Both the position numbers and the translations under genes were made by a program. The notes beneath the pieces are model-generated. The model searched no databases and was not told where the DNA came from. It saw only the letters and a program-made list of their open reading frames with translations. From a virus: a stretch of DNA of 37,933 bases. Positions 2,795 through 33,842 of the stretch are shown piece after piece (the first letter of the stretch is position 1; each line of letters begins with the position of its first letter). Where the stretch lies: the IMG/VR virus record IMGVR_UViG_3300017598_000360, positions 1 through 37,933 of that record, one strand, 5' to 3'.

Positions 2795-4773
2795 TTTTTA
2801 GCCCCTTCTGTTTTGATTGCTTCTTTAGCGTTTTGGGCTGCCGCATTAAAAAACGGAAGCAATTTATTTAAAACTACCTGCTCTGCCTTGCTGCCTTTTG
2901 GCGCGCTGGCCATTCTAAGTAACAGGCTTCTCATTCCTGCACTCTCATAGGCTCTGGATATCCCAGCTAATGAGCCAGCTATCCCAAACGATATTCCCGC
3001 ATCAAACTGGGCACCCGCTATAGCTGCAACTGGGGCTGCAAGCTGTTGGCCTGTAGCTGTTGAAACTGGTGCTTCCTGCGCTCTTCTTGTTGCTTGCAAA
3101 ACCCTAGTTATCCCTTCAATTTGTTTTTTATCCGCGCCTTTGAAAAATACATTGACAGCCTTTTGTCTTGCTGGCTTCAATAATGCTGTAGCGAATCTAT
3201 CAGGATTGGCACCAGCACCCCAGTACCCGCTTTCTGTTAGTGCATCCCTAATTATCGACAGTTGCGCAGCCTTTTTGCCATCATCCCCAATAACAGAGTT
3301 AAGCCTTTTTAATTCGCTTGGCTTGCCCCCTTTTAATATAGTGGCTATTGTTTCTGGTGTGCCCTCGCCTTTCTGGAGAAGTCTTTTTATTTCTGTGTTT
3401 TTGGCTTTTTTATACCCATCTGCAAATATTCGATTGCTTCTTACCCAATTGGCGGCGGCTTTCCTGTCGTGCAATTTTCCAAATGATAAGAGATCTTTAT
3501 CAATTGCAGACTTAACGGCCTGTAGTGGTGCGCTTGCCTTTGTTGGTAGCGTCTCCCCCTTGTATGCGGCCGTAATATCGTCAATTAAGTTTGATCTAAG
3601 GTCTTTTACTAGCCCAAAATCTGCACCTTGAATAGACTCTCTAAGGCTTCCTAGCCTCTCAATAATTTCTGGGCTTGCATCGGCTCTTAATCGTTCTTGT
3701 GCCGCTATCTGGTCATCAATTGATTTTAGCGCTTTTGATACATCAACATCACCAAACTGGTTGAGCTTTTCTACAGCTTCATTTCTTATGATTGACGCCT
3801 TGTTTAGCTGCTGAGCAACGCCACTCTTTAAACTTTTAAAGATATCCTTTTCTATAGGGGTATCGATTGAAAGCCCCATTTCTTGTGCAAGACCCTCTAC
3901 TACTTCAATCCTGGCCTTTTGCTGTGCCGCTCTTTTGCCGCCAGTGCCTAAAACACCAAGCTTTTCACCTAATTGTTGAACTGTTCTTTTGACAAACGTA
4001 TCAGGTGGCAACACATCAGTTGTTAGTATATCAACGCCCTTTTCTTTGCCTTTCTTTATAAGCTCCTTTATTGGCTCCGATACTTTGCCACCAACTGCCC
4101 TGGCTAATGGAGATAGAACCTTTGAAGCAACGACTTGACCAACTGGAGCCGCAGCAGAAGCGAGAGCAATATCACCCGGATTAACCTCACCACCTCCTAA
4201 TGACTGCACCCACTCTATGCCTGCCTGAGTCGCACCAGAAGCGGCAGCAAGCATTCCCAGCCCTTTTGCGCCACCTGTGGCAAGCCCGGCCATTCCAGAC
4301 GGGAAAAAGGCAGCCGTAAGGCCCAGCCCCTGTATAACGTCCAACCTTGACAATCCTGGCTTATTTAACTCTACTATTGCGCCCGTCTTGTTGTTTACTG
4401 CAATCAACCTACCTTGCGGTGTCTCCACACTGGGAGGTGTCATAGATACACCAACATTGGGAAAATTAGACGTTAAAACTTGCGCCAACTCTTGAGGGTT
4501 GGTTGTCGTCAATAAAACTGGAGCAATAGCGGCAGCCTTTAGCCTATCTTCGCCACTCAACAAGCCACCCTCACCCAGTTCAGGGAGTTCGGATAACTGT
4601 TGCGTTAATCTAGGGTCTTCTTTGGCAATCTGCGTAGTCGGCGACACCGGATCAGGCCTTGATTCAGCTTGGCCTGCCTTAATCCCTGACAGCTCGTCAA
4701 GCAAATCACCACCGGCAGGGGCCGCATTAATGGTTGATTGATTGGATTCCAACTCGTCGAGCAAATCGCCCAT
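2791..4773 (-). CDS. Large internal virion / DNA-ejection protein candidate (position of P22 gp16)
   Basis: 660 aa, Ala/Gly/Lys-rich. ATG start overlaps the upstream stop by 1 nt (TAATG). Third of three consecutive low-complexity proteins ahead of the tailspike. N-terminus carries a duplicated GDLLDEL motif. Confidence 0.45.
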   Translation of the reverse strand: MGDLLDELESNQSTINAAPAGGDLLDELSGIKAGQAESRPDPVSPTTQIAKEDPRLTQQLSELPELGEGGLLSGEDRLKAAAIAPVLLTTTNPQELAQVLTSNFPNVGVSMTPPSVETPQGRLIAVNNKTGAIVELNKPGLSRLDVIQGLGLTAAFFPSGMAGLATGGAKGLGMLAAASGATQAGIEWVQSLGGGEVNPGDIALASAAAPVGQVVASKVLSPLARAVGGKVSEPIKELIKKGKEKGVDILTTDVLPPDTFVKRTVQQLGEKLGVLGTGGKRAAQQKARIEVVEGLAQEMGLSIDTPIEKDIFKSLKSGVAQQLNKASIIRNEAVEKLNQFGDVDVSKALKSIDDQIAAQERLRADASPEIIERLGSLRESIQGADFGLVKDLRSNLIDDITAAYKGETLPTKASAPLQAVKSAIDKDLLSFGKLHDRKAAANWVRSNRIFADGYKKAKNTEIKRLLQKGEGTPETIATILKGGKPSELKRLNSVIGDDGKKAAQLSIIRDALTESGYWGAGANPDRFATALLKPARQKAVNVFFKGADKKQIEGITRVLQATRRAQEAPVSTATGQQLAAPVAAIAGAQFDAGISFGIAGSLAGISRAYESAGMRSLLLRMASAPKGSKAEQVVLNKLLPFFNAAAQNAKEAIKTEGAKK

Positions 4774-6700: not shown

Positions 6701-7144
6701 TCACCTCTTTATCATCATTAGCCATTTATCGTATAAAAGGCCGTTTTTGACATAACTGTTATCTATTACGCTCTCTTCACTAAAACCCATCAGTTCCGAG
6801 AATGCTTTAACATTGGGGTAAATTTCCGGTATCAGTGCTCGAAGCTTGTTGATTTCGGTATTATTCCAAACCCACTCTAATACTTTGGTGCCAAACTCGT
6901 TGGCGTGTTCTTGTCTATATTCTGGCTTTACTTGTACGTGACAAAACCAATTGTTACCACGTTTATGCACTACAAATAAGCCTATAACTTGACCTTCATT
7001 GTACCCCAAAAGGTATATATGATCATCTTTGGGTACTTCAAACGCTTCTTTGTCGTCAAAGTCGCCGCTAATTGTTTCCCATATCCCAGGATATGTTAGA
7101 ACATCCTTGACCGCTTTTAGGTCGTCGGTTTGTTCTATTATCAA
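6701..7144 (-). CDS. GNAT-fold N-acetyltransferase-like protein inside the virion module
   Basis: 147 aa. The stretch GQVIGLFVVH..WFCHVQVKPEYRQEHANEFGTKVLEWVWNNTEINKLRALIPEIYPNVKAFSELMGFSEESV resembles the GNAT core, though the acetyl-CoA motif is not canonical. TTG start forms a TTGA overlap with the upstream stop, and there is no in-frame ATG near the N-terminus. Confidence 0.5.
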   Translation of the reverse strand: MIIEQTDDLKAVKDVLTYPGIWETISGDFDDKEAFEVPKDDHIYLLGYNEGQVIGLFVVHKRGNNWFCHVQVKPEYRQEHANEFGTKVLEWVWNNTEINKLRALIPEIYPNVKAFSELMGFSEESVIDNSYVKNGLLYDKWLMMIKR

Positions 7145-7479
7145 ACCGTTCTAATCATCAGTGATAAGTGCATATTAAGAGCGGTTGCTGTACTGCACGA
7201 CGTTCGTATATCCGTACCAGCACTAAGCCTCTTCCCCAGCAATTCAGGGAGTAAGTCTGTTTGCCCGGCAAGAATAGTTTTCCCATCAATCACAAGGTTA
7301 GTAGCTCCACCCGCCGCTGTAGGGTTTGGGATATAAACACTGAACGTCACCGCTGAGGCGCTTTCATTGCATATAGTGCCCTGAGTTATCTCGGCATTGG
7401 TTCCGTCCTCGACAACTTTTTGTGATGTGTCGGCTATAGCCATTTGCTCTACTCTTACTTCTTCGTATGAAATTGCCAT
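7141..7479 (-). CDS. Small virion-module protein (112 aa), function unknown
   Basis: ATG start. Tightly packed between structural genes, beta-rich composition. Confidence 0.6.
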   Translation of the reverse strand: MAISYEEVRVEQMAIADTSQKVVEDGTNAEITQGTICNESASAVTFSVYIPNPTAAGGATNLVIDGKTILAGQTDLLPELLGKRLSAGTDIRTSCSTATALNMHLSLMIRTV

Positions 7480-7779: not shown

Positions 7780-8124
7780 TTACCACTCCGTTACGTGAAC
7801 AACCATTGTTCCACTATCTGTTATCGCTGAAACCTCACCCGTGTAAAGATTATCTACAGGCATCGCCCAGCTAGGTCTAAATAGGGCATCATTTCCCCCT
7901 GTGCGCCTAGTCAATACTTCGCCCCTGAAAACGTTATCGGTTGCTGCTGAGTAACACCTGATTGCAACATCTTCGTCAGTAGAACCCCTATCAAGACACA
8001 CAGTGAAATACATTCTTTCACTATTCGCCAGCGAAATCACGGTAGCCGTCACGCTATTCAGAGTGTAGGTTGTCACTGTAGCCACGTCATTAGAGTTTGC
8101 GTTCCGCCCTATTATTTGTACCAT
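7780..8124 (-). CDS. Small virion-module protein (114 aa), function unknown
   Basis: The track ORF 7780..8322 was trimmed to ATG 8124..8122 (MVQIIGRNANS...), one nt after the upstream TAA at 8128..8126. The longer version would overlap the preceding gene by about 200 nt. Confidence 0.6.
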   Translation of the reverse strand: MVQIIGRNANSNDVATVTTYTLNSVTATVISLANSERMYFTVCLDRGSTDEDVAIRCYSAATDNVFRGEVLTRRTGGNDALFRPSWAMPVDNLYTGEVSAITDSGTMVVHVTEW

Positions 8125-11383: not shown

Positions 11384-11581
11384 CTAAGATTTGTCTTTTT
11401 TATTCATCAAGCTGGGTATTTCTAAAGGGATGTACTTTGGTTCTGGTAGCGGTTTTGGTTTACCCTTCGTTAGCTTTTCCATCCAATTAGAACTGAAAGC
11501 ATCAGAAGGGCAATCAAACTTGTCCCCAGGGCGGCGATATACGCCACCGAAGAAACCTCGCTTAATTGCCCTAACCCGCAT
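11384..11581 (-). CDS. Small basic protein (65 aa) in the head module
   Basis: ATG overlaps the upstream TGA by 1 nt. The plus-strand ORF 11391..11588 is its antisense shadow. Confidence 0.5.
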   Translation of the reverse strand: MRVRAIKRGFFGGVYRRPGDKFDCPSDAFSSNWMEKLTKGKPKPLPEPKYIPLEIPSLMNKKDKS

Positions 11582-12054
11582 CAGTTAATTGTCACGTTGT
11601 CAGCATGAGAAACATACTGTGAAACGTCACATAGTGGAGCAATCCACGCATCAACTGTTATGGTGGGAGATGTTCCCGCTAAGGTGTAACGCACACCAAG
11701 GAAGTCACCGTCTTCATCATCCATAGTAGGAGGAATTGGAATGGCGAACACGAAGCCAGCCACAAGCAAATCAGCGTCCTGTGCTGGAGCGCCTGGCGTG
11801 CCAGATTCAAAGATTCTACGACCCATCAATTGAACACCTGCGTCCTGAGCGGCGGCAGTAGCGTATTCAACATCAAAAGTGTAGTCCTCGTCACCAGTGG
11901 TTTGATCAGCATCAACACCGACAGAAAAAACAACTGCCATTGGCTCACCGTTACCAACTCCGCGTGCGACTTCGATGTCTACCACGTTAGTTCCGACTGC
12001 CGTAGCGGTTAACGCTTGAGCATCGGATAGCTTTAACAACTTATCAATATACAT
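11581..12054 (-). CDS. Bbp16-like capsid cement / decoration protein
   Basis: 157 aa, immediately after the major capsid gene. The N-terminus MYIDKLLKLSDAQALTATAVGTNVVDIEVARGVGNGEPMAVVFSV matches my memory of the Bbp16 cement family. Confidence 0.6.
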   Translation of the reverse strand: MYIDKLLKLSDAQALTATAVGTNVVDIEVARGVGNGEPMAVVFSVGVDADQTTGDEDYTFDVEYATAAAQDAGVQLMGRRIFESGTPGAPAQDADLLVAGFVFAIPIPPTMDDEDGDFLGVRYTLAGTSPTITVDAWIAPLCDVSQYVSHADNVTIN

Positions 12055-20209: not shown

Positions 20210-21574
20210 CTATTGAATAGTCCAAGTGGTTGAAGCGTCTATTTTTTCGTCCCAAGTTGCTGAAACGTCTGGTTGAACAGTCCAACCTCCCGCAGAAACA
20301 ACGATAACTCCTTGTTGCACTGAAGACTCTTGACCTGTCAATGTTAATATATTTGCGGTCTGGAAGCCAATTACACCCTGTCCCACCACTGATTGAAGCC
20401 CAGACAAGCCAACAACCGTATCCACTACAACTGACATCGTGCCTTGTGCGGATGACAACCCCTGGCCTGTTAGATCTACACCAACCCCTGCTGATACTGA
20501 TATTGCACCCTGATTAACTGTAGATTCTTGCCCTGAGAGCGCCTCTATTGCCGCGCCAGAGATTGCCAGAGTCCCTTGGCCTACCGTTGAAGATTGCCCA
20601 GTAAGTGGAACAATTGCGACTCCACCGACAGTGACAATTACCGCTCCTTGGCCTACTGTCGAGGCTTGACCTGTTAGCGCTTCAGAAATCCCTATTGATA
20701 CAGCTAAGGCACCCTGCCCGGAAGTAGAAGACTGCCCAGCAAGGGCTGTAGATGCAGCTCCAGAGATCGACAATGTACCCTGACCAGATGTAGACGCCTG
20801 GCCTGTTAGATTTACAGTTGTCCCTGCATCAGCATCCCAATTAGCATCATTACCGGAAGCTAGGGCTGTATGGGCGTCGGATTGCTGCGTGGATGTTAAT
20901 ACACCTGTAAACAGCTCTGCGTAGTAAATCTTTCCATCAATGTTCCGGTTCTGGCTCGGCCTATTGCCTATTGTTGCGTATCGATTAGTATTATTGATGT
21001 TGTCTAGTGTTGAATCTAGTGTCAGCGTTCCACCCGCTGCGGTCTCTAGAGATCCGTCGTAATAAACTTTACATCTATCGGCCCCTGCGGCCTCAGTCGT
21101 ATCTATTGACACGCCGATTGTAGTTATACCGCTTGGTATGCTGTAGCTTACCGTATCATCGACACCGCCGCTTTCTTGGTCCCAGCGAATTCGCAAGACT
21201 GTCGTATCAACTACGATGCTTAGATCTGTGTCACCACTATTTGTACCGATTGCAAAAAGTCTTGAGCCTGAAGCGGCCCCTGCGTCAATAGTGGCCCTTA
21301 GTATAAAAGAAACCTCAGATACAGCATCTAAGCTAGAGCCAATATCACCATTAGTAGCGATATCATCCAGTTCAGCAATAGCTGTATTAGATGATCCTGC
21401 CGTTGCTGTAAAATCTAACCCATTGCCAGCCGCGACACTAGTCCAGGCAGCATCGCCCGAACTATAGTCGATAGTGAGAGTATTGGACCCTTCATCGTCG
21501 GCGCATTCAGTTGGAGTTGTACCGCTTGAGGCTTCATTTAAGAGCCATCTAGCGATTGATGATGCGGCTGCCAT
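20210..21574 (-). CDS. LamG/concanavalin-A-like domain protein with 8 tandem ~22-aa repeats (fibre/adhesin candidate)
   Basis: 454 aa. The N-terminal ~235 aa carry LamG-type features (RLFAIGTNSGD..., IGNRPSQNRNIDGKIYYAELFTGVLT). They are followed by LTGQ(A/S)STxGQGxhxhS repeats and a W/T-rich tail (WTVQPDVSATWDEKIDASTTWTIQ). Confidence 0.7.
   Translation of the reverse strand: MAAASSIARWLLNEASSGTTPTECADDEGSNTLTIDYSSGDAAWTSVAAGNGLDFTATAGSSNTAIAELDDIATNGDIGSSLDAVSEVSFILRATIDAGAASGSRLFAIGTNSGDTDLSIVVDTTVLRIRWDQESGGVDDTVSYSIPSGITTIGVSIDTTEAAGADRCKVYYDGSLETAAGGTLTLDSTLDNINNTNRYATIGNRPSQNRNIDGKIYYAELFTGVLTSTQQSDAHTALASGNDANWDADAGTTVNLTGQASTSGQGTLSISGAASTALAGQSSTSGQGALAVSIGISEALTGQASTVGQGAVIVTVGGVAIVPLTGQSSTVGQGTLAISGAAIEALSGQESTVNQGAISVSAGVGVDLTGQGLSSAQGTMSVVVDTVVGLSGLQSVVGQGVIGFQTANILTLTGQESSVQQGVIVVSAGGWTVQPDVSATWDEKIDASTTWTIQ
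20285..20809 (-). repeat. Coding tandem repeat, about 8 x 63-69 bp (~22-aa units)
   Basis: Protein-level repeats aligned by eye: LTGQASTSGQGTLSISGAASTA / LAGQSSTSGQGALAVSIGISEA / LTGQASTVGQGAVIVTVGGVAIVP / LTGQSSTVGQGTLAISGAAIEA / LSGQESTVNQGAISVSAGVGVD / LTGQGLSSAQGTMSVVVDTVVG / LSGLQSVVGQGVIGFQTANILT / LTGQESSVQQGVIVVSAGG. Confidence 0.85.
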
Positions 21575-23395: not shown

Positions 23396-23563
23396 TTACT
23401 TAGCTTTAGCCATACCCGTACACGTTAGCCTTGTGATGTGATTGCCCTCTATAATCTCGAAATTTTCAATCACAAAGCCAGGACATGATTCTCTGAACGC
23501 TGCTACTTGCTCGCGCTCCAAGATTGGGCAAGCTAGAGCGCATATGATTATTAAGCTATTCAT
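23396..23563 (-). CDS. Small Cys-containing protein (55 aa), unannotated in the track
   Basis: ATG 23563 overlaps the upstream stop by 8 nt (ATGAATAG). Translation: MNSLIIICALACPILEREQVAAFRESCPGFVIENFEIIEGNHITRLTCTGMAKAK. It replaces the antisense plus-strand ORF 23442..23675. Confidence 0.45.
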   Translation of the reverse strand: MNSLIIICALACPILEREQVAAFRESCPGFVIENFEIIEGNHITRLTCTGMAKAK

Positions 23564-23702
23564 TGTCTTTCTTCATAGCAATTTTCCAGCAATCACACAC
23601 GATTTCATCACAATCAATGCAAGTCGTTGGTGTTGGATGCTTGAAAACCCAAGTCATGAATTGATTGAATTTTAAAACTAAGTAGTCGTGTAATTTCTTC
23701 AT
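23556..23702 (-). CDS. Small Cys-rich protein (48 aa), unannotated in the track
   Basis: ATG 23702 with a GGAGG SD 8 nt upstream. Translation: MKKLHDYLVLKFNQFMTWVFKHPTPTTCIDCDEIVCDCWKIAMKKDNE. Confidence 0.5.
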   Translation of the reverse strand: MKKLHDYLVLKFNQFMTWVFKHPTPTTCIDCDEIVCDCWKIAMKKDNE

Positions 23703-25746: not shown

Positions 25747-25974
25747 TTATTTGTCAGAATCTGCAACTGATAACGACCCGAGCCTGTCAAACTCATGACC
25801 CATATCAATCTTGGTTTTTATTACCTTAACTTCTGCGTAAAAAGACTCGTTCACCTGAGCCGCTATTTTCGTTATATCTCGCGCCTTTTGCGGGTCCATC
25901 GTGCCGTTTGCAACCAGGTTTATTGATGAACACAAGAACTCTCTTAAGTCGCCTGTAGTTTTAATTTTTGCCAT
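25747..25974 (-). CDS. Hypothetical early protein (75 aa)
   Basis: ATG 25974. Overlaps the upstream gene by 31 nt. Confidence 0.55.
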   Translation of the reverse strand: MAKIKTTGDLREFLCSSINLVANGTMDPQKARDITKIAAQVNESFYAEVKVIKTKIDMGHEFDRLGSLSVADSDK

Positions 25975-26507
25975 TTTAGTCTTTCCTTATTTAGTTTATT
26001 GATTAGTGTTTTGTTTTCTCTATAAGCATAAACATTTTTTACGTAGATTTTTCTTTTGTTCCAACAGCTAGTGCATAAAAATGTTTTGTCGAAATGGAGG
26101 TGTAAATCACCCCTGTCATAGATTCGGCCTTCTGTTGTTTGGCAGCTTTCGCACTGAGAAACCATATGTTGCAAACTAACACCAAAATCTCTAGGATATT
26201 TTTCAACAACCTCCCTCGTTCTAACACAAGAATATGGAACAAGATCCTCTTTGGCTCTGTCATATTCAAATCTAGCCCCATTCCATACAGGGCAATTCCA
26301 TTTGCCGTTATGGTAATGGCCTAAGCCAAAATCAAAGATCGAATTAAAGGTTTGATTCGGGTTAAATGAATACCGCTCACAAACCCTGTAAATTAGATCC
26401 CTATCCTTAATCTGGCAAAGGAACCGATTCCTTGATATGCGCGTAAGCATACATTCAACCCTTTCTTTTGGACTCCAAGCATAACCAGGAATATTCCAAC
26501 GCTTCAT
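25944..26507 (-). CDS. Cys/His-rich protein (187 aa) with a C-terminal zinc-ribbon-like CxxC...CxxC
   Basis: ATG 26507; first gene downstream of the 26.5-kb divergent promoter region. CESC(x22)CTSCW followed by a basic tail. Confidence 0.6.
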   Translation of the reverse strand: MKRWNIPGYAWSPKERVECMLTRISRNRFLCQIKDRDLIYRVCERYSFNPNQTFNSIFDFGLGHYHNGKWNCPVWNGARFEYDRAKEDLVPYSCVRTREVVEKYPRDFGVSLQHMVSQCESCQTTEGRIYDRGDLHLHFDKTFLCTSCWNKRKIYVKNVYAYRENKTLINKLNKERLKWQKLKLQAT

Positions 26508-26617: not shown

Positions 26618-26824
26618 ATGGATACTAGAAAAGAAAGTACGGTTGTTGGAATTATCATGTATTTGGGCGGTCCTGATCGAATGGCCGGAAAGCTCGGGGT
26701 AACAGTGGGGGCTATCAGTCACTGGAAAACTAAAGGGGTTATTCCTGCTGATAGGGCAATTCAAATTGAAGAAATCACAAAAGGTAAATTGAGAGCCGTT
26801 AGAATGCCAAGGGCGAAGTTATGA
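26618..26824 (+). CDS. Cro/YdaS-like HTH regulator (68 aa)
   Basis: Strong GGAGG SD. GGPDRMAGKLGVTVGAISHWKTKGVIPADRAIQIEEITKGKL matches the YdaS/Cro-type HTH as I remember it. Transcribed opposite to its neighbours. Confidence 0.75.
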   Translation: MDTRKESTVVGIIMYLGGPDRMAGKLGVTVGAISHWKTKGVIPADRAIQIEEITKGKLRAVRMPRAKL

Positions 26825-28429: not shown

Positions 28430-29157
28430 TCGTAAGCGCCCTCAATTATTTTTATCATCTTGTTTTGGTTAATCACGAAATCAAAGTCTGCCATCCAACT
28501 ACTTGTTTTGCCCATTAGAAAATTGGATTGACTTACTACTTCAAAGTAACCCTTCCAAAAATCTAGGCTTTGACATTTTATGTCTGATCGCCAAGCAGCT
28601 CCCAAACTCTTTTTCCGTTTATCAGTAAGCTTAGCCACTCTTGGTAATTCCGGTAGTATTTCCATGTATAATTTTGCTATTTGATCATGTGGGCAATTAT
28701 CAACTTTGTTGATTGAGCCGTTAGGCGACAAGTCTTTATTATTGGTTATTGGTTTATGGTTTATGGTTATTGGTTCTTGGTTAGCTTTCGATCCGGTTTC
28801 TTCTGGGTTAGCTGAATTAACCGACTGGGTTTTATCTGGGTTCTTTGGCCTTCCTCCCTTCTTGCCGTTAGCCCTTGCAGCATCAGCCTTTGAGTGATAT
28901 TTGTTTATTTCTTCGTCAGCCCTCTTATTGATCCAGAACCCGTTATCAAGAGTGAAGAAATCAGACAGAACATTGGTAATTTCGTCTATGTTTTCACGCA
29001 TACTAATCAATCTCGCTATCTGATTAACGTCATCAGGCATAGGTGATTCATTGGTATAATAGAGGTCAATTAATCGACGATAGGCTAGGTCTTCTGCGTT
29101 GGTTAAATGCCTTGTTCGCTTGGCATAGTCACCTATGTTGAATTGGTAGTAATGCAT
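28426..29157 (-). CDS. Replication initiator / helicase-loader candidate (DUF1376/YdaU-like N-domain plus phage replication-protein C-domain)
   Basis: MHYYQFNIGDYAKRTRHLTNAEDLAYRRLIDLYY is the DUF1376 opening (from memory). A basic low-complexity linker separates it from the C-terminal domain. Coupled to dnaB. Confidence 0.7.
   Translation of the reverse strand: MHYYQFNIGDYAKRTRHLTNAEDLAYRRLIDLYYTNESPMPDDVNQIARLISMRENIDEITNVLSDFFTLDNGFWINKRADEEINKYHSKADAARANGKKGGRPKNPDKTQSVNSANPEETGSKANQEPITINHKPITNNKDLSPNGSINKVDNCPHDQIAKLYMEILPELPRVAKLTDKRKKSLGAAWRSDIKCQSLDFWKGYFEVVSQSNFLMGKTSSWMADFDFVINQNKMIKIIEGAYE
28741..28782. repeat. 6 x 7-bp tandem repeat (WWTGGTT) inside the initiator gene linker
   Basis: attggtt attggtt tatggtt tatggtt attggtt cttggtt, read directly. 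It encodes ...EPITINHKPITNNK... on the minus strand. Confidence 0.9.
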
Positions 29158-30541: not shown

Positions 30542-30730
30542 TTAAAATCTGCTGATCTGATCAAGTAGCTGGAAGTCTTTAACGCCCTTCTCTAGCAGCG
30601 TATTTGTGAGCCTAGCCTTTAGTATGTCAAAGCTCTCATCTATCTCACAGCCCCCGCATTCTCCGTCTTCTAACCTCATTTTGTGTTGGACCTTGATTTC
30701 GTCCATTAATACTTTGATGGTCTTATCCAT
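30542..30730 (-). CDS. Hypothetical protein (62 aa)
   Basis: ATG start, consistent strand. Confidence 0.5.
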   Translation of the reverse strand: MDKTIKVLMDEIKVQHKMRLEDGECGGCEIDESFDILKARLTNTLLEKGVKDFQLLDQISRF

Positions 30731-30758: not shown

Positions 30759-31034
30759 TTAAACGAAACACGCTAGATACTCCTCATCTTCTAACATCCA
30801 GTTTTGCCTTCGAAGCTCTATTGCATCCTCCTTAGTTAGCCCTGCATTAACAAGCTCTTCGGCGTCACATGCATAAATAACCTCATATCCAGACCCCGAA
30901 ATTCCGCTAAGAGGTAAGTATTTGTGGATAATAAGCAAGCCTTTCATGGTGTTGCAGCCTGGTTCGCTCAACCCTTTGCCGCTGTACTCGTCATCCTCAT
31001 CGCTCATAATCTCTATAAATTGCTGTAGTTCCAT
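30759..31034 (-). CDS. Acidic hypothetical protein (91 aa)
   Basis: ATG start. Contains one perfect DnaA-box 9-mer (TGTGGATAA at 30924..30932), which I judge non-significant on its own. Confidence 0.55.
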   Translation of the reverse strand: MELQQFIEIMSDEDDEYSGKGLSEPGCNTMKGLLIIHKYLPLSGISGSGYEVIYACDAEELVNAGLTKEDAIELRRQNWMLEDEEYLACFV

Positions 31035-31046
31035 ATCGTTTACCTG

Positions 31047-31214
31047 CTATTTGATTAGCTTGTACTTGCTTGCCTTAAAATACTTAGATTCTTCAGTTTC
31101 CAGCCTTTTCTCTAGCTCCTTATCAATTGAGAATTTTAATATCCTTAGTTGCTCTGATGTTGATACTTCAAATAGTTCTTTTTTAAGCCTGAAAAATTCG
31201 TTCTTGTTACCCAT
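31047..31214 (-). CDS. Small coiled-coil protein (55 aa), unannotated in the track
   Basis: ATG 31214 is preceded by an in-frame stop. Translation: MGNKNEFFRLKKELFEVSTSEQLRILKFSIDKELEKRLETEESKYFKASKYKLIK. The plus-strand 126-aa ORF 30922..31302 is its antisense shadow. An 8-codon mini-ORF with a strong SD (31232..31206) overlaps its start. Confidence 0.45.
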   Translation of the reverse strand: MGNKNEFFRLKKELFEVSTSEQLRILKFSIDKELEKRLETEESKYFKASKYKLIK

Positions 31215-31386
31215 TTACTTTACCTTTAGACATAGTTACCCCTTTACTCCCTTCTTGATAACCTCAATAGAACCAGCTTATTTCTCCAAGCCATTCTATT
31301 GATCAAGCATTATAGGATTCAGCTCCACCACCGAAGCGGCTCAAGTTATTGACCAGGTTAGTAAAGGGTAAACAATTGCCTGGATT

Positions 31387-31415
31387 TTGGCTTACCAATT
31401 CCTCTAATTGATAAT
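31387..31415 (+). promoter_or_regulatory. Candidate sigma70-like promoter on the plus strand (TTGGCT-17-GATAAT)
   Basis: -35 at 31387..31392, a 17-nt spacer, and -10 at 31410..31415. A weaker alternative is TTGACC (31349..31354)-16-AACAAT. Confidence 0.35.
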
Positions 31416-31496
31416 GTATGCGTTAATGTTCGTTTGTGAACTGTTCCGATTGTTATTTATACCGGGGAGGAAACCGCTAAATCATTCCGGTGTAAA

Positions 31497-31642
31497 GCAG
31501 CATAGAAGAGAGTGCTGGGCCTTCGAAGCGAGAAAACTAGGCTTACTCCCAGATTTCTACACCAGCGCCTCTGCTGCTCCCGAACTACCTCGCTAAAGGT
31601 AACGTGAAGACAGTTAAGAGGTTTTACTCTCATCTATGCTGC
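31497..31642 (+). ncRNA. Candidate structured RNA domain / long 5' leader (strand not proven)
   Basis: gcagcatagaagagagt (31497..31513) pairs with actctcatctatgctgc (31626..31642): 16 bp plus one A.A mismatch, enclosing 112 nt with further local stems (31515..31522 with 31539..31552; 31568..31572 with 31617..31621). No ORF with an SD covers this stretch on either strand. Confidence 0.35.
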
Positions 31643-31686
31643 CTTTGAAACAGCTTTGAATGTGACGCTAACTCACTGAGGGCAAA

Positions 31687-31821
31687 ATGATATTCAATCA
31701 TCACAGTGTTAAGAAGCTATCAGCGCTTGATAAATTCACGATAACGCCACAATCAAAACTGTCTCATATGGGAAAATCACAAAGATTAGTCCCATGTGGA
31801 ACCGAGGCTTGCGAAATATGA
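31687..31821 (+). CDS. Possible 44-aa ORF in the plus-strand cassette
   Basis: ATG 31687 with a GAGGG SD 4 nt upstream. Translation: MIFNHHSVKKLSALDKFTITPQSKLSHMGKSQRLVPCGTEACEI. Confidence 0.3.
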   Translation: MIFNHHSVKKLSALDKFTITPQSKLSHMGKSQRLVPCGTEACEI

Positions 31822-31835
31822 GCAGATTTAATAGA

Positions 31836-31934
31836 ATGAAGTTGTCGAAACGTGGTGTAGATTTGTTTAACTTCTTCTTCGCTATTTTGTCTGCATCATG
31901 GCTCGCCAAAGCCTCGACACAAATTCAATACTAG
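31836..31934 (+). CDS. Possible 32-aa hydrophobic peptide (type I toxin-like or small membrane protein)
   Basis: Translation: MKLSKRGVDLFNFFFAILSASWLAKASTQIQY. Its stop codon lies inside the first arm of the plus-strand terminator. No obvious SD. Confidence 0.3.
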   Translation: MKLSKRGVDLFNFFFAILSASWLAKASTQIQY

Positions 31935-31966
31935 AGGGTTGTTCAGAAATGTTCAACCCTCTTTTT
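31933..31966 (+). terminator. Rho-independent terminator oriented for plus-strand transcription
   Basis: agagggttg (31933..31941), a 12-nt loop, then caaccctct (31954..31962) followed by TTTT AATTT. On the minus strand the same hairpin is followed by agtattgaattt, which is a poor U-tract. Overlaps the stop of the convergent gene 31943..32128. Confidence 0.55.
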
Positions 31967-32128
31967 AATTTCATGGCAGAAAAACAAGTGATTAACCTCG
32001 TAAGCTGCCTCTATCAGATTAGCCGTTGCTCTATCGAATTCTGACCATTCTTTTTTACAGCAAATCGCTTGATGCGCTCGCCCCAACTCTTCCATGGCAT
32101 CATTGAATTCTTTTGTGTATTCGCTCAA
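31943..32128 (-). CDS. Hypothetical protein (61 aa)
   Basis: TTG start at 32128 forms a TTGA overlap with the upstream stop. The next in-frame ATG would give only about 50 aa. Confidence 0.5.
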   Translation of the reverse strand: MSEYTKEFNDAMEELGRAHQAICCKKEWSEFDRATANLIEAAYEVNHLFFCHEIKKRVEHF

Positions 32129-32496
32129 TGAATCATCCCCTTTATTTCCCTGTCTGCTCGTGCGTTATCTAGCTCTGACATTGGAATGCAACTAAGCACA
32201 AGATCCTCTTCACCAGTGATAATGTCGTCAATTGTTACGAATTCATGGTCTAACATCCTGAAAGTGAAATCAAAATCAAGGCCAAGCAAATACTTAATGG
32301 CATGCTCTGCATCATCCAGCACAACAGGCAGCAAAAATGAATTCTCCTGATATTTGTCAGAAACAGTCATCCCCCATATACCATCTTTCTTGGAAATGGT
32401 AAAAAGCCCCTCCCTTTCTTCTAATATGTATTGCCTTGATTTTGCATCAAACATGTCTTTCATTTTCATTAGCTTTTTCTTATCGCTATTTTTCAT
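32125..32496 (-). CDS. Hypothetical acidic protein (123 aa)
   Basis: ATG 32496, consistent strand. Confidence 0.6.
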   Translation of the reverse strand: MKNSDKKKLMKMKDMFDAKSRQYILEEREGLFTISKKDGIWGMTVSDKYQENSFLLPVVLDDAEHAIKYLLGLDFDFTFRMLDHEFVTIDDIITGEEDLVLSCIPMSELDNARADREIKGMIH

Positions 32497-33656: not shown

Positions 33657-33842
33657 ATGGAAGCACAACTAAGCACGAACGAAATTCACGCACTTTCTAT
33701 AATTATGGACGACTTGCAAAATCCAGTGCCTTGGCAAACTGAGTACAGACCAAACTATGACTTTTTCTGCCCTAAGTTTGGGTTAACTGAAGCGCGTACT
33801 AATGAACTTTGGCAGGAAGCAAAGAAAAGGATTGCTGCGTGA
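33657..33842 (+). CDS. Hypothetical protein (61 aa), first gene of the rightward operon
   Basis: ATG with a GGGAGA SD. Confidence 0.6.
   Translation: MEAQLSTNEIHALSIIMDDLQNPVPWQTEYRPNYDFFCPKFGLTEARTNELWQEAKKRIAA

Follow-up and report, generated by a model that had tools for sequence, protein, structure and literature searches.

The window, by which we mean the whole stretch of DNA analysed here, consists of 37,933 nucleotides of IMG/VR virus record IMGVR_UViG_3300017598_000360. The phage is described as marine. The stretch 31303..32124 is the single case in this 38-kb window where at least 450 nt pass without an ORF of at least 65 aa on either strand, and the JGI gene calls on the source contig likewise leave the gap empty. 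The ORF-poor gap pointed out by an earlier note on this DNA is thus real. Its G+C content is slightly below that of the genome. From about 31216 to 31916, the gap is a non-coding, structured and functional island within the leftward early operon.

Two small minus-strand genes from the ORF list border this island. Upstream is an early gene of 61 aa (31943..32128), downstream is one of 55 aa (31047..31214), whose product has zero family matches. Further downstream in the same operon are rep and dnaB, at 2-3 kb from the island in the window. They are similarly found downstream in the related loci L181/L182.

Four further lineages of the element are available from metagenomic phage contigs: L166/L084 (with L085 grouped with L084 as a homologue), L170, L181-183 and L184. 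The 61-aa protein has as its sole homologue a 65-aa protein (P0002/P0004); by way of P0002 we arrived at L084, and by way of cluster mates at L166. L170 turned up with the seed CAATTAGAGGAATTGGTA, and L181-184 with cluster mates of the small gene downstream in L170. Small homologous genes lie 3’ of the element in L170, L181-183 and L184, and the 55-aa gene accompanies the RNA element in every lineage that spans that side.

Rfam 15 models, run over the whole window at gathering threshold, gave zero matches, and this includes GOLLD, ROOL, HEARO, OLE, C4/CI, hok/sok, sib and a Y RNA-like family. At E ≤10 over 31000-32200 there is eukaryotic lncRNA noise only, and in the relatives the only Rfam matches are to tRNA. 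The earlier note had recognised no known RNA family, and this holds for the window as a whole. In both near and distant modes, blastn found nothing among INPHARED phages or PLSDB plasmids. Around Rep homologues, 80 loci (L001-L080) have no blastn, nhmmer or single-sequence covariance-model match to the gap. The related-locus search with the flanking 123-aa and 91-aa proteins gave nothing, and a word-indexed search with the 55-aa protein gave no homologue. Seed ACAGTTTTGATTGTGGCG has 0 hits in viral contigs, and 26 in GTDB genomes and 53 in metagenomes, all of them chance matches; seed GCGTCACATTCAAAGCTG has 0 matches, and for AAACGAACATTAACGCA and AAGTCTAGGCAACCGTGG the true match is L170 only.

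The gap does not resemble a former gene. A six-frame concatenated translation has zero matches among 5.8 billion proteins, which is evidence against a decayed gene, and a Pfam search also gave zero matches. The micro-ORFs that can be read in the gap, of 44 aa and 32/46 aa on the plus strand and 19 aa on the minus strand, are not kept in L084, L166, L170 or L181. Of the 44-aa ORF, the first 18 codons fall within an unalignable cargo region (described below), and over the remainder all 4 of the 4 differences from L084 are non-synonymous, next to a 5-nt indel. A counterpart of the 32-aa ORF was sought in L084, where there is none. The 19-aa hydrophobic ORF (31797-31738) was considered as a type I toxin and rejected, since it is lost in L170, L181 and L184.

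What the gap does have is structure. The 756-nt span folds with a z of −8.2 on the plus and −8.5 on the minus strand, and the 530-nt core at 31440-31969 reaches −9.4 and −9.3 on the two strands. As background, 37 windows of the genome have a mean z of −0.3 with a standard deviation of 1.3, and a minimum of −3.6.

The bulk of this structure (modules A, B, C, H and S3, introduced below) is selected on the minus strand, which is the sense strand of the operon. This follows from G.U pairs that exist on the sense strand only, and from the relatives, where the sense strand folds better. Internal G.U pairs number 8 on the minus strand versus 2 on the plus strand, and in B and C alone 6 versus 0. Sense versus antisense z is −7.2 versus −2.2 in L166, −7.3 versus −4.4 in L181 and −4.8 versus −1.8 in L184. 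For domains D and E it is the plus strand that folds slightly better. No promoter or terminator was found on the sense strand that would bound a separate RNA.

Read in the sense direction, from about 31916 to 31216, the minus strand folds as a conserved chain of modules: E, D, a stalk C with its cargo, B, H, S3 and A. The 3’ end of this chain is the ribosome-binding site of the conserved 55-aa gene.

Domain E (31803..31916), with which the sense RNA begins at its 5’ edge, is a long and hypervariable hairpin. In the window it folds with a z of −5.4 on the plus and −4.4 on the minus strand. Its equivalent in L084 is also a long hairpin, even if barely alignable, and the same layout is found in L166, L170 and L181. 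Next is hairpin D (31768..31797), which is kept in L166, L084 and L170, with one two-sided change in L170 and one in L084. In L181 and L184 a different hairpin takes its position.

Domain C (31646..31766) consists of a 24-bp stalk with one 1x1 mismatch, formed by arms 31742-31766 and 31646-31670, that carries a variable cargo (31671-31741). The base of the stalk is GAGAC/GUUUC with an invariant G.U. Both arms are kept in all lineages and the cargo is unalignable. Two-sided changes affect 6 of 23 stalk pairs, the outer 13 bp are never broken, and there are four internal G.U pairs, which only the minus strand can form.

Domain B (31494..31645) has a 19-bp stem, again with one 1x1 mismatch, and a three-way junction. 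The stem arms (31494-31513 and 31626-31645, inverted repeat I1) are complementary at 18 of 20 positions, and the domain folds with a z of −5.7 on the minus versus −4.1 on the plus strand. Its profile also matches L022 (E 2.8e-4), which has a B-like domain. In L166, an unrelated 26-bp hairpin replaces B. What looked like a hammerhead core in B is base-paired sequence, and it has no Rfam match. An integron attC site was likewise rejected, given that no R’/R’’ core sites are visible by eye.

Hairpin H (31461..31491) has the form ACCGG...CCGGU, with UUUCCUCC in its loop. In L166 it shows a compensatory change from C:G to A:U. It comes after B in the window, and before B in L170, L181 and L184.

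Segment S3 (31375..31460) is the most conserved stretch. Blocks of 17 and 27 nt are identical across the window, L166 and L170, and a 9-bp hairpin with an AGAGG loop (31392-31414) is either invariant or retained in each lineage. The loops of H and S3 were considered as kissing partners, which is unsupported by L181 when judged by eye. A candidate sense-strand promoter in S3 is good in L170 only. The chain ends with the multi-helix domain A (31216..31374), which runs up to the ribosome-binding site of the 55-aa gene. No pseudoknots or long-range tertiary pairs were identified anywhere in the island.

The helices are not only predicted, they also covary. Five lineages are known, three of them fairly close, which means that the counts reflect few independent events. 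The hand-registered helices have 13 two-sided changes, 4 one-sided changes that keep the pair, and 2 breaks, both in terminal pairs. The same limit applies to the domain counts that follow, for which the structures were derived from the same alignments. For B, compared across four lineages, pairing is kept in 97.5% of cells and two-sided changes are seen in 8 pairs, a number reached by at most 1 in 500 shuffles, and slid controls are 35-45% paired. For S3 and A together, also in four lineages, 97.1% of cells over 61 pairs are paired and 9 pairs have two-sided changes. There, 0 of 500 shuffles reach 9, and slid controls get to at most 2. Slid-partner controls overall are 35-50% paired. The compensatory changes, the invariant G.U and the identical blocks of 17-27 nt together point to purifying selection on the sense RNA. 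The earlier note had proposed conservation and covariation as a test, and the structured RNA is indeed conserved and covarying in the relatives.

Cargos differ in kind. In L181, positions 2422-2489 score 35.6 bits on the Rfam tRNA model (RF00005, gathering score 29), and in L170 positions 7794-7855 score 22.8 bits. Both elements sit atop stalks. In L170 the element is the cargo of the C stalk itself, and in L181 it is carried by a neighbouring stalk, whose base is likewise GAGAC/GUUUC. Their anticodon loops are shortened and ARAGORN calls neither; these cargos are tRNA-like elements, and not tRNA genes. The window has no ARAGORN call and no RF00005 match, and its cargo consists of plain hairpins that are not tRNA-like.

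Opposite the 5’ edge of the island, the plus strand holds a predicted small RNA gene. The putative promoter (31809..31837, TTGCGA-17 nt-TAGAAT) lies inside the 5’ arm, in plus orientation, of hairpin E. Put differently, one arm of E would encode the body of the sRNA and the other holds its promoter. The pattern TTGNNN-N16/17-TA[G/T]AAT has its sole plus-strand match at this homologous site in each of the window, L166, L084, L170 and L181, with TTGCGA, TTGAAA or TTGCAA as first hexamer and TAGAAT or TATAAT as second. The flanking sequence is only about 50% identical.

The predicted sRNA of about 125 nt (31844..31968) is taken to start 7 nt past the −10 and to end in the T-run of an intrinsic terminator (31933..31972). 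The terminator stem pairs AGAGGGTTG with CAACCCTCT (31933-31941 with 31954-31962), followed by TTTTAATTT, and folds at −16.6 kcal/mol, with a z of −3.9. The same layout of hairpin and T-run is built from four different stems in the window, L166/L084, L170 and L181, and in the aligned stem 5 of 6 pairs change on both sides and stay paired. This bears out the plus-strand terminator of the earlier note, which has equivalents in four lineages. In the window the upstream 61-aa gene overlaps the terminator by some 24-30 nt, its last 8 codons. In L170 and L181 the gene in this position is unrelated, and the terminator is nonetheless present.

Judged by its signals, a convergent plus-strand sRNA gene is conserved: promoter and terminator are there in every lineage that spans this edge, and the RNA in between is hypervariable. 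The predicted sRNA folds with a z of −5.35 versus −3.0 for its complement (−4.1 versus −2.3 for the L084 equivalent), and when four lineages are folded to a consensus, two-sided changes affect 11 of 28 pairs. It is fully complementary to the first 125 nt or so of the island plus the last 8 codons of the upstream gene. This layout, with a convergent promoter and a terminator, and with the upstream ORF overlapped at its 3’ end, is that of lambda OOP and is found in four lineages. A plus-strand unit that ends at this terminator and is antisense to the leftward early transcript, as the earlier note had it, is therefore supported.

From the anatomy shown above we infer how the island may work. At somewhat less than an even chance, we tentatively favour an island whose stalk-mounted RNAs are transcribed together with the operon and processed from the early transcript, with an OOP-like antisense RNA to tune it. 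The early transcript would read through the island. The nearly perfect stalks of 19-24 bp, with their GAGAC/GUUUC base and fixed G.U, would then act as processing stalks, to be cleaved by an enzyme of the RNase III type or, in the case of tRNA-like cargo, by RNase P. For an RNase III stalk, the sequences on both sides of the released RNA pair over two helical turns, some 20 bp or more, and the C stalk (24 bp) and B stem (19 bp) are of this kind. Cleavage by RNase III or RNase P is not reliably predictable from sequence. It would free the stalk-mounted RNAs, and split the upstream from the downstream cistrons. The idea of released RNAs is weakest for this very phage, since the cargo in the window consists of plain hairpins.

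The antisense RNA may pair with the 5’ edge of the island, much like lambda OOP does with cII mRNA. Cleavage of the duplex, or interference by convergent transcription, could determine the amount of transcript that gets to the island, the 55-aa gene and rep/dnaB. A hypervariable E and sRNA body between a kept promoter and terminator fits a specificity-determining antisense pair. There is also a wider version, to which we give an outside chance, where the island represents a new class of phage RNA that is large and modular. This class would display exchangeable cargo on the stalks of a conserved scaffold made up of S3, A, B and the stalk bases. The cargo would include tRNA mimics with disabled anticodon loops, which might serve host tRNA-targeting defence or processing enzymes as decoys or substrates. 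The class would be made early, and be gated by its own hypervariable antisense RNA.

Other explanations have to be weighed. The most conserved part, S3 and A, adjoins the downstream gene, and a cis-acting leader therefore fits at least as well as a processed RNA. The island could then purely be a giant attenuator or translational control of the 55-aa and replication genes, with the antisense RNA as a repressor in the manner of CopA/CopT or RNA I/RNA II, and no stable RNA products would matter. That the element is always directly upstream of the same small gene, with A ending at its ribosome-binding site, speaks for this, as do rep and dnaB in the same operon, and hypervariable antisense pairs with conserved promoter and terminator are typical of specificity-determining control RNAs. 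The antisense pairing however happens 600-700 nt upstream of the regulated start codon, the stalk-borne tRNA-like cargo of relatives has no obvious role in a leader, and changes in the order of B and H, with B replaced in L166, are hard to square with one precise switch. Also, a terminator/antiterminator alternative was not found on the sense strand. We consider such a pure leader unlikely, if still worth serious attention. Less likely again is a stand-alone ornate RNA of the GOLLD/ROOL type, one possibly multimeric particle with tRNA-like passengers, its dose set by operon and antisense RNA. It would explain a phage-encoded RNA of 0.6-0.9 kb with a conserved 3’ region and a variable 5’ part with tRNA-like elements, but not that every Rfam model, GOLLD and ROOL included, fails to match even with E relaxed to 10. 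Modules that are swapped, reordered and replaced between lineages also argue against one fixed tertiary architecture, and no pseudoknots or long-range tertiary pairs were identified.

It is improbable that the island is evolutionary debris, a decayed phage tRNA island plus selfish palindromic (MITE-like) insertions between two operon halves, with only the antisense sRNA functional. The tRNA-like elements without an ARAGORN call in L170 and L181 would suit this, and so would the wholesale replacement of B- and E-type hairpins between near-identical flanks and the varying position of B. Purifying selection on the sense RNA speaks against it. In addition, the element seeds are not multi-copy across 596 Gb of genomes, metagenomes and IMG/VR, and no element repeats elsewhere in the window. 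There is hence no spreading repeat family, and a MITE family was rejected. Very improbable is the model of the earlier note, a plus-strand unit of about 550 nt transcribed from a promoter at 31387-31415, seen as a moron or type I toxin-antitoxin with 44-aa and 32-aa peptides. All its parts are in the window: a consensus-like promoter, a 44-aa ORF behind a GAGGG Shine-Dalgarno, a 32-aa hydrophobic ORF and a terminator, and the −10 hexamer GATAAT is conserved. The promoter however matches 9 of 12 consensus positions, which is at chance level (20 such matches in 9 kb, versus 21.3 ± 5.2 in shuffles), its −35 reads TCGGCT in 4 of 5 lineages, and L181 has a 15-nt spacer. The conservation here stems from the 9-bp sense-strand hairpin, of which this ‘promoter’ is the complement. 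With the conserved promoter at 31809-31837 instead, the plus-strand RNA comes to about 125 nt, not 550. The long-range helix of the supposed leader is real and covaries in relatives, but it belongs to the sense RNA, since the G.U pairs in the helices are minus-only. Neither peptide is conserved or has relatives in Pfam or protein databases, and with that the moron and type I toxin readings fail. A moron needs a coding ORF between promoter and terminator, and here the ATG of the 32-aa ORF (31836) overlaps the conserved −10 and so lies upstream of the predicted transcription start; for a toxin-antitoxin pair, the antisense RNA with promoter and terminator is in place, and the conserved hydrophobic toxin ORF is missing. 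The same note listed alternatives, and one of these, an RNase III processing region of the leftward transcript, comes closest to the explanation favoured here. Its decayed gene and replication origin are disfavoured, and the least probable of all is that DNA hairpins here form an origin or a zone of single-strand initiation. Large inverted repeats, the slightly low G+C and the location in a replication-gene operon could suggest one. The gap however lacks the iterons, and any direct or tandem repeats, of a theta-type (lambda-like) origin. Iteron-like repeats are instead inside the rep gene (28739-28842), as in lambda O, and strand-specific G.U pairs with a conserved promoter and terminator indicate RNA.

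The co-transcribed island of stalk-mounted RNAs, if it is that, opens up several questions: what role phage ‘RNA islands’ have, how early non-coding RNAs are processed and dosed, and if tRNA mimics serve as decoys against defence. The analysis also shows that, given a few fragmentary relatives, an ORF-free gap in a metagenomic phage contig is resolvable down to strands and modules.

Parts of the arrangement have precedents. Lambda OOP RNA is a 77-nt RNA that is cis-antisense to the cII mRNA in the lambdoid early operon. Both there and here (at about 125 nt) a short RNA starts at a promoter between cistrons, runs against an early operon upstream of replication genes, and stops at a terminator overlapping the upstream ORF at its 3’ end. 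There is no sequence similarity, and here the gene is embedded in a long hairpin and fronts a 0.6-kb structured RNA, neither of which is true of lambda.

RNase III processing stalks are found in rRNA operons and T7 early mRNA, and T4 has a tRNA/stable-RNA cluster. These share with the island long leader-trailer helices round an RNA cut from a polycistronic transcript, which here would be a matter of inferred cleavage, as well as tRNA-like processing signals and phage early transcripts. The fixed stalk base GAGAC/GUUUC with its G.U is not a known RNase III determinant, and unlike in T4, the cargo in the window is of no recognisable RNA type.

In CopA/CopT of R1 and RNA I/RNA II of ColE1, too, replication functions are preceded by a long structured sense RNA, and facing it is a convergent antisense RNA that is itself structured and has a promoter and terminator of its own. 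There, as here, the region of pairing is hypervariable between relatives, and the signals are conserved. Here however rep lies downstream of the target by 2-3 kb, with eight small genes in between, and primer formation or leader-peptide coupling is not in evidence. Type I toxin-antitoxin systems (hok/sok, ibs/sib, tisB/istR) likewise combine a structured mRNA with a cis-antisense RNA, and short hydrophobic reading frames are present in the window; unlike in these systems, no small ORF is conserved on either strand.

To our knowledge, large structured RNAs with real covariation that fall in no catalogued family are rare, and GOLLD and ROOL, which belong to the few phage cases known, have no function assigned. 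GOLLD has tRNAs in a linker and a conserved 3’ half, and occurs in phages near tRNA islands (PMC12286853). Like GOLLD and ROOL, the element is phage-borne, several hundred nucleotides long, has a covarying structure with conserved and variable parts, and comes with tRNA or tRNA-like sequences (PMC12286853). It differs in having no Rfam match, in its reordered and swapped modules, in lying on the sense strand of a protein-coding operon, and in its own predicted antisense RNA. What it offers beyond GOLLD and ROOL is a defined regulatory context, in an early operon upstream of rep and dnaB, a probably dedicated antisense RNA, and cassette-like exchange of stalk-mounted RNAs, some of which are tRNA-like. 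Together these make it an experimentally tractable entry to such questions about phage RNA.

The window, a phage sequence about 38 kb long, matches JGI metagenome contig Ga0186781_1153781 exactly. Its genes include those for an SU10-type portal, a GP7-type capsid protein, DnaB and a DUF1376/O-like Rep; among cultured phages it is distantly related to marine Vibrio and Thalassomonas podophages. No integrase was found among the ORFs scanned, a minority of those in the window. Between 33517 and about 700 the minus strand carries almost all genes, and a divergent block on the plus strand begins at 33657. The region studied is a gap within the minus-strand early operon, flanked by a 61-aa gene (31943-32128, minus strand) and a 55-aa gene (31047-31214, minus strand); rep and dnaB follow about 2 kb downstream. 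An earlier note had called this gap poor in ORFs, and it is: 31303-32124 has no ORF of at least 65 aa on either strand, which is true of no other stretch of 450 nt or more in the window, and independent gene calls on the same contig likewise place no gene in the gap.

The gap folds unusually well. The stretch 31215-31970 has a z of −8.2 (plus) and −8.5 (minus), and the 530-nt core at 31440-31969 reaches −9.4 and −9.3. The background of 37 other 530-nt windows has a mean of −0.3, a standard deviation of 1.3 and a minimum of −3.6. Rfam holds no match to the gap, either at gathering thresholds or at E ≤10, so the earlier note rightly matched the RNA to no known family. No tRNA was found in the window. 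Among 200-nt windows elsewhere, good folds occur at 11501-11700 (minus, z −6.4; a short gap after a capsid-region gene ending at 11581), 21201-21400 (plus, −5.5), 23401-23600 (minus, −4.3) and 7001-7200 (plus, −4.2).

No relatives emerged from direct DNA searches, from loci anchored on Rep or from several scans with exact seeds; protein look-ups and a single seed scan did reach them. One homologue is known for the 61-aa protein, P0002 (75% identity), encoded on two 0.6-kb ENA contigs, L084 and L085, that both extend into the gap. P0004, from the same 90% cluster, is encoded on the 974-nt JGI contig L166, which spans the element as far as window position ~31370. The seed CAATTAGAGGAATTGGTA, from a conserved block, led to a more diverged copy on a 42-kb IMG/VR phage contig, L170. 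The small gene downstream of the element in L170 then led, by way of its cluster mates, to L181 (an NCBI MAG contig), L182 and L183 (ENA contigs) and L184; L181, L182 and L183 are mutually identical in the element region. The comparison thus covers five lineages. Homologues of the 55-aa gene are always directly downstream of the element, and in L181 and L182 genes for a 242-aa Rep and for DnaB again lie downstream of it. The window's 62-aa gene (30542-30730) has homologues in other early-region contexts that lack the RNA element, on L165 (ENA, 5.4 kb), where the homologue adjoins DUF551 and RecT, and L167 (JGI, 1.2 kb). This is an example of how these small early genes are exchanged mosaically.

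Conservation of the element is itself a mosaic. Lineages hardly differ in the arms of the 24-bp stalk C (31742-31766 and 31646-31670, minus strand), in segment S3 (31375-31460, minus), in hairpins D and H and in much of domain A. The stalk C cargo (31671-31741, minus), hairpin E and the terminator are unalignable, and all still fold as hairpins. Module order varies too: C-B-H-S3 in the window (31461-31645) and C-H-B-S3 in L170 (7877-8035), L181 and L184. L166 has an unrelated, unalignable 26-bp hairpin in place of domain B. A B-like domain (nhmmer E 2.8e-4) occurs at 3737-3885 (minus) of L022, a more distant phage whose Rep N-terminal region is 54% identical; it has the same orientation as the genes around it, inside an 889-nt ORF-free structured gap (3249-4137). 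The distribution of module B is thus wider than that of the element as a whole.

In all lineages every stalk begins with GAGAC and closes with GUUUC, for example at 31762-31766 and 31646-31650. The resulting set of five pairs, one of them an invariant G.U, recurs at every stalk base and looks like a sequence-specific recognition site. L170 and L181 each have a tandem pair of stalks, and stalks with this base and G.U carry tRNA-like RNAs there, which have D and T arms and an anticodon loop that is shortened. Against the Rfam tRNA model (gathering score 29), L181 2422-2489 scores 35.6 bits and L170 7794-7855 scores 22.8; ARAGORN calls neither a tRNA. The tRNA-like RNAs atop stalks also take in positions 7673-7685 of L170, and the second stalk of L181 has two more T-arm-like motifs.

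The helices covary, as judged from few independent lineages and from structures drawn from the same alignments. Hand-registered helices show 13 two-sided changes, 4 one-sided changes that keep the pair and 2 broken pairs, each of them terminal. In domain B, 97.5% of cells are paired across four lineages (35-45% in slid controls), and 8 pairs have two-sided changes, a number reached in at most 1 of 500 shuffles. Domain B contains the long-range helix of the earlier note, an inverted repeat of 31494-31513 with 31626-31645. S3 and A together have 61 pairs, 97.1% paired, with two-sided changes in 9 (0 of 500 shuffles; at most 2 in slid controls). Covariation in the C stalk involves 6 of its 23 pairs, with no break in any of the outermost 13 bp.

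On sequence evidence, the structured RNA is that of the operon's sense (minus) strand. This follows from the G.U pairs with Watson-Crick neighbours, 8 on the minus versus 2 on the plus strand (6 versus 0 within B and C), the minus-strand ones being invariant between lineages, and from the much better sense folds in relatives: z −7.2 versus −2.2 for L166, −7.3 versus −4.4 for L181 and −4.8 versus −1.8 for L184.

A predicted antisense sRNA converges on this RNA. The plus-strand pattern TTGNNN-N16/17-TA[G/T]AAT has exactly one match each in the window, L166, L084, L170 and L181, at the homologous position in all five: TTGCGA-17-TAGAAT in the window (31809-31837), TTGAAA-17-TAGAAT in L084 and TTGCAA-16-TATAAT in L170. 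A hairpin and T-run follow 105-125 nt later, with a different stem sequence per lineage; the plus-oriented one already noted in the window is present at 31933-31972. Across four predicted sRNAs, 5 of 6 aligned terminator stem pairs changed on both sides with pairing kept. The predicted sRNA folds with z −5.35 versus −3.0 for its complement (−4.1 versus −2.3 in L084). The terminator overlaps the final codons of the upstream gene, whichever gene that is; since L170 and L181 have unrelated genes there, the terminator is part of the element.

The gap had been read as a plus-strand moron or type I toxin-antitoxin cassette, to which we now give very little credence. Its proposed promoter (31387-31415) is a 9/12 match, of which there are 20, versus 21.3 ± 5.2 in shuffles; the −35 is TCGGCT in 4 of 5 lineages, the L181 spacer is only 15 nt, and conservation here is due to the S3 hairpin. 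The 44-aa ORF starts in unalignable cargo, and its alignable part differs from L084 by a 5-nt indel and four substitutions, all non-synonymous. The 32-aa ORF has no L084 counterpart, and the conserved promoter's −10 hexamer overlaps its ATG. A hydrophobic 19-aa minus-strand ORF (31797-31738) looks like a type I toxin against L084, yet is lost in L170, and hairpin D is replaced in L181 and L184. Pfam gave no match, and protein databases no relative in any frame of the gap. Tested as a moron and as a toxin-antitoxin unit, the element behaves as neither. Even less is to be said for a replication origin in the gap: the element fails as one, and it is the middle of rep, not the gap, that has iteron-like direct repeats (28739-28842; two copies of TGGTTATTGGTT... 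spaced by 21 nt and two of GGTTTnnTCTGGGTT), probably the origin by analogy with lambda O. Elsewhere, a lone Cro/YdaS-like HTH gene (26618-26824, plus), convergent with dnaB, adjoins a 187-aa gene without family match (25944-26507, minus); the two may form a regulatory switch.

As the likeliest mechanism, we propose that the early transcript would run on across an island, built like a cassette, of RNAs mounted on stalks. These stalks, 19-24 bp long, would be cleaved for processing by an enzyme of the RNase III type or, under tRNA-like cargo, of the RNase P type. This would free the cargo and uncouple upstream from downstream cistrons. The convergent sRNA, pairing perfectly with the island's 5' edge and the upstream gene's end, might tune the amount of transcript that reaches the island and replication genes intact, like lambda OOP. 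A giant leader acting purely in cis is a rather unlikely alternative, and debris of a tRNA island an improbable one. Tested as a tRNA gene, the element fails.

A stand-alone particle like GOLLD or ROOL is unlikely, if less so than tRNA debris. The likeness is general only, these being phage-borne, large and partly variable with embedded tRNA elements (PMC12286853), and the large RNA fails their covariance models. There is a small chance that the element stands apart as a new class of modular RNA that displays cargo. It is rated as belonging with phage structured-RNA loci under antisense control. In structure, the predicted sRNA qualifies as an OOP-like cis-antisense RNA, and the hypervariable pair that it forms with hairpin E, with its signals conserved, resembles the specificity-determining antisense controls of plasmids.
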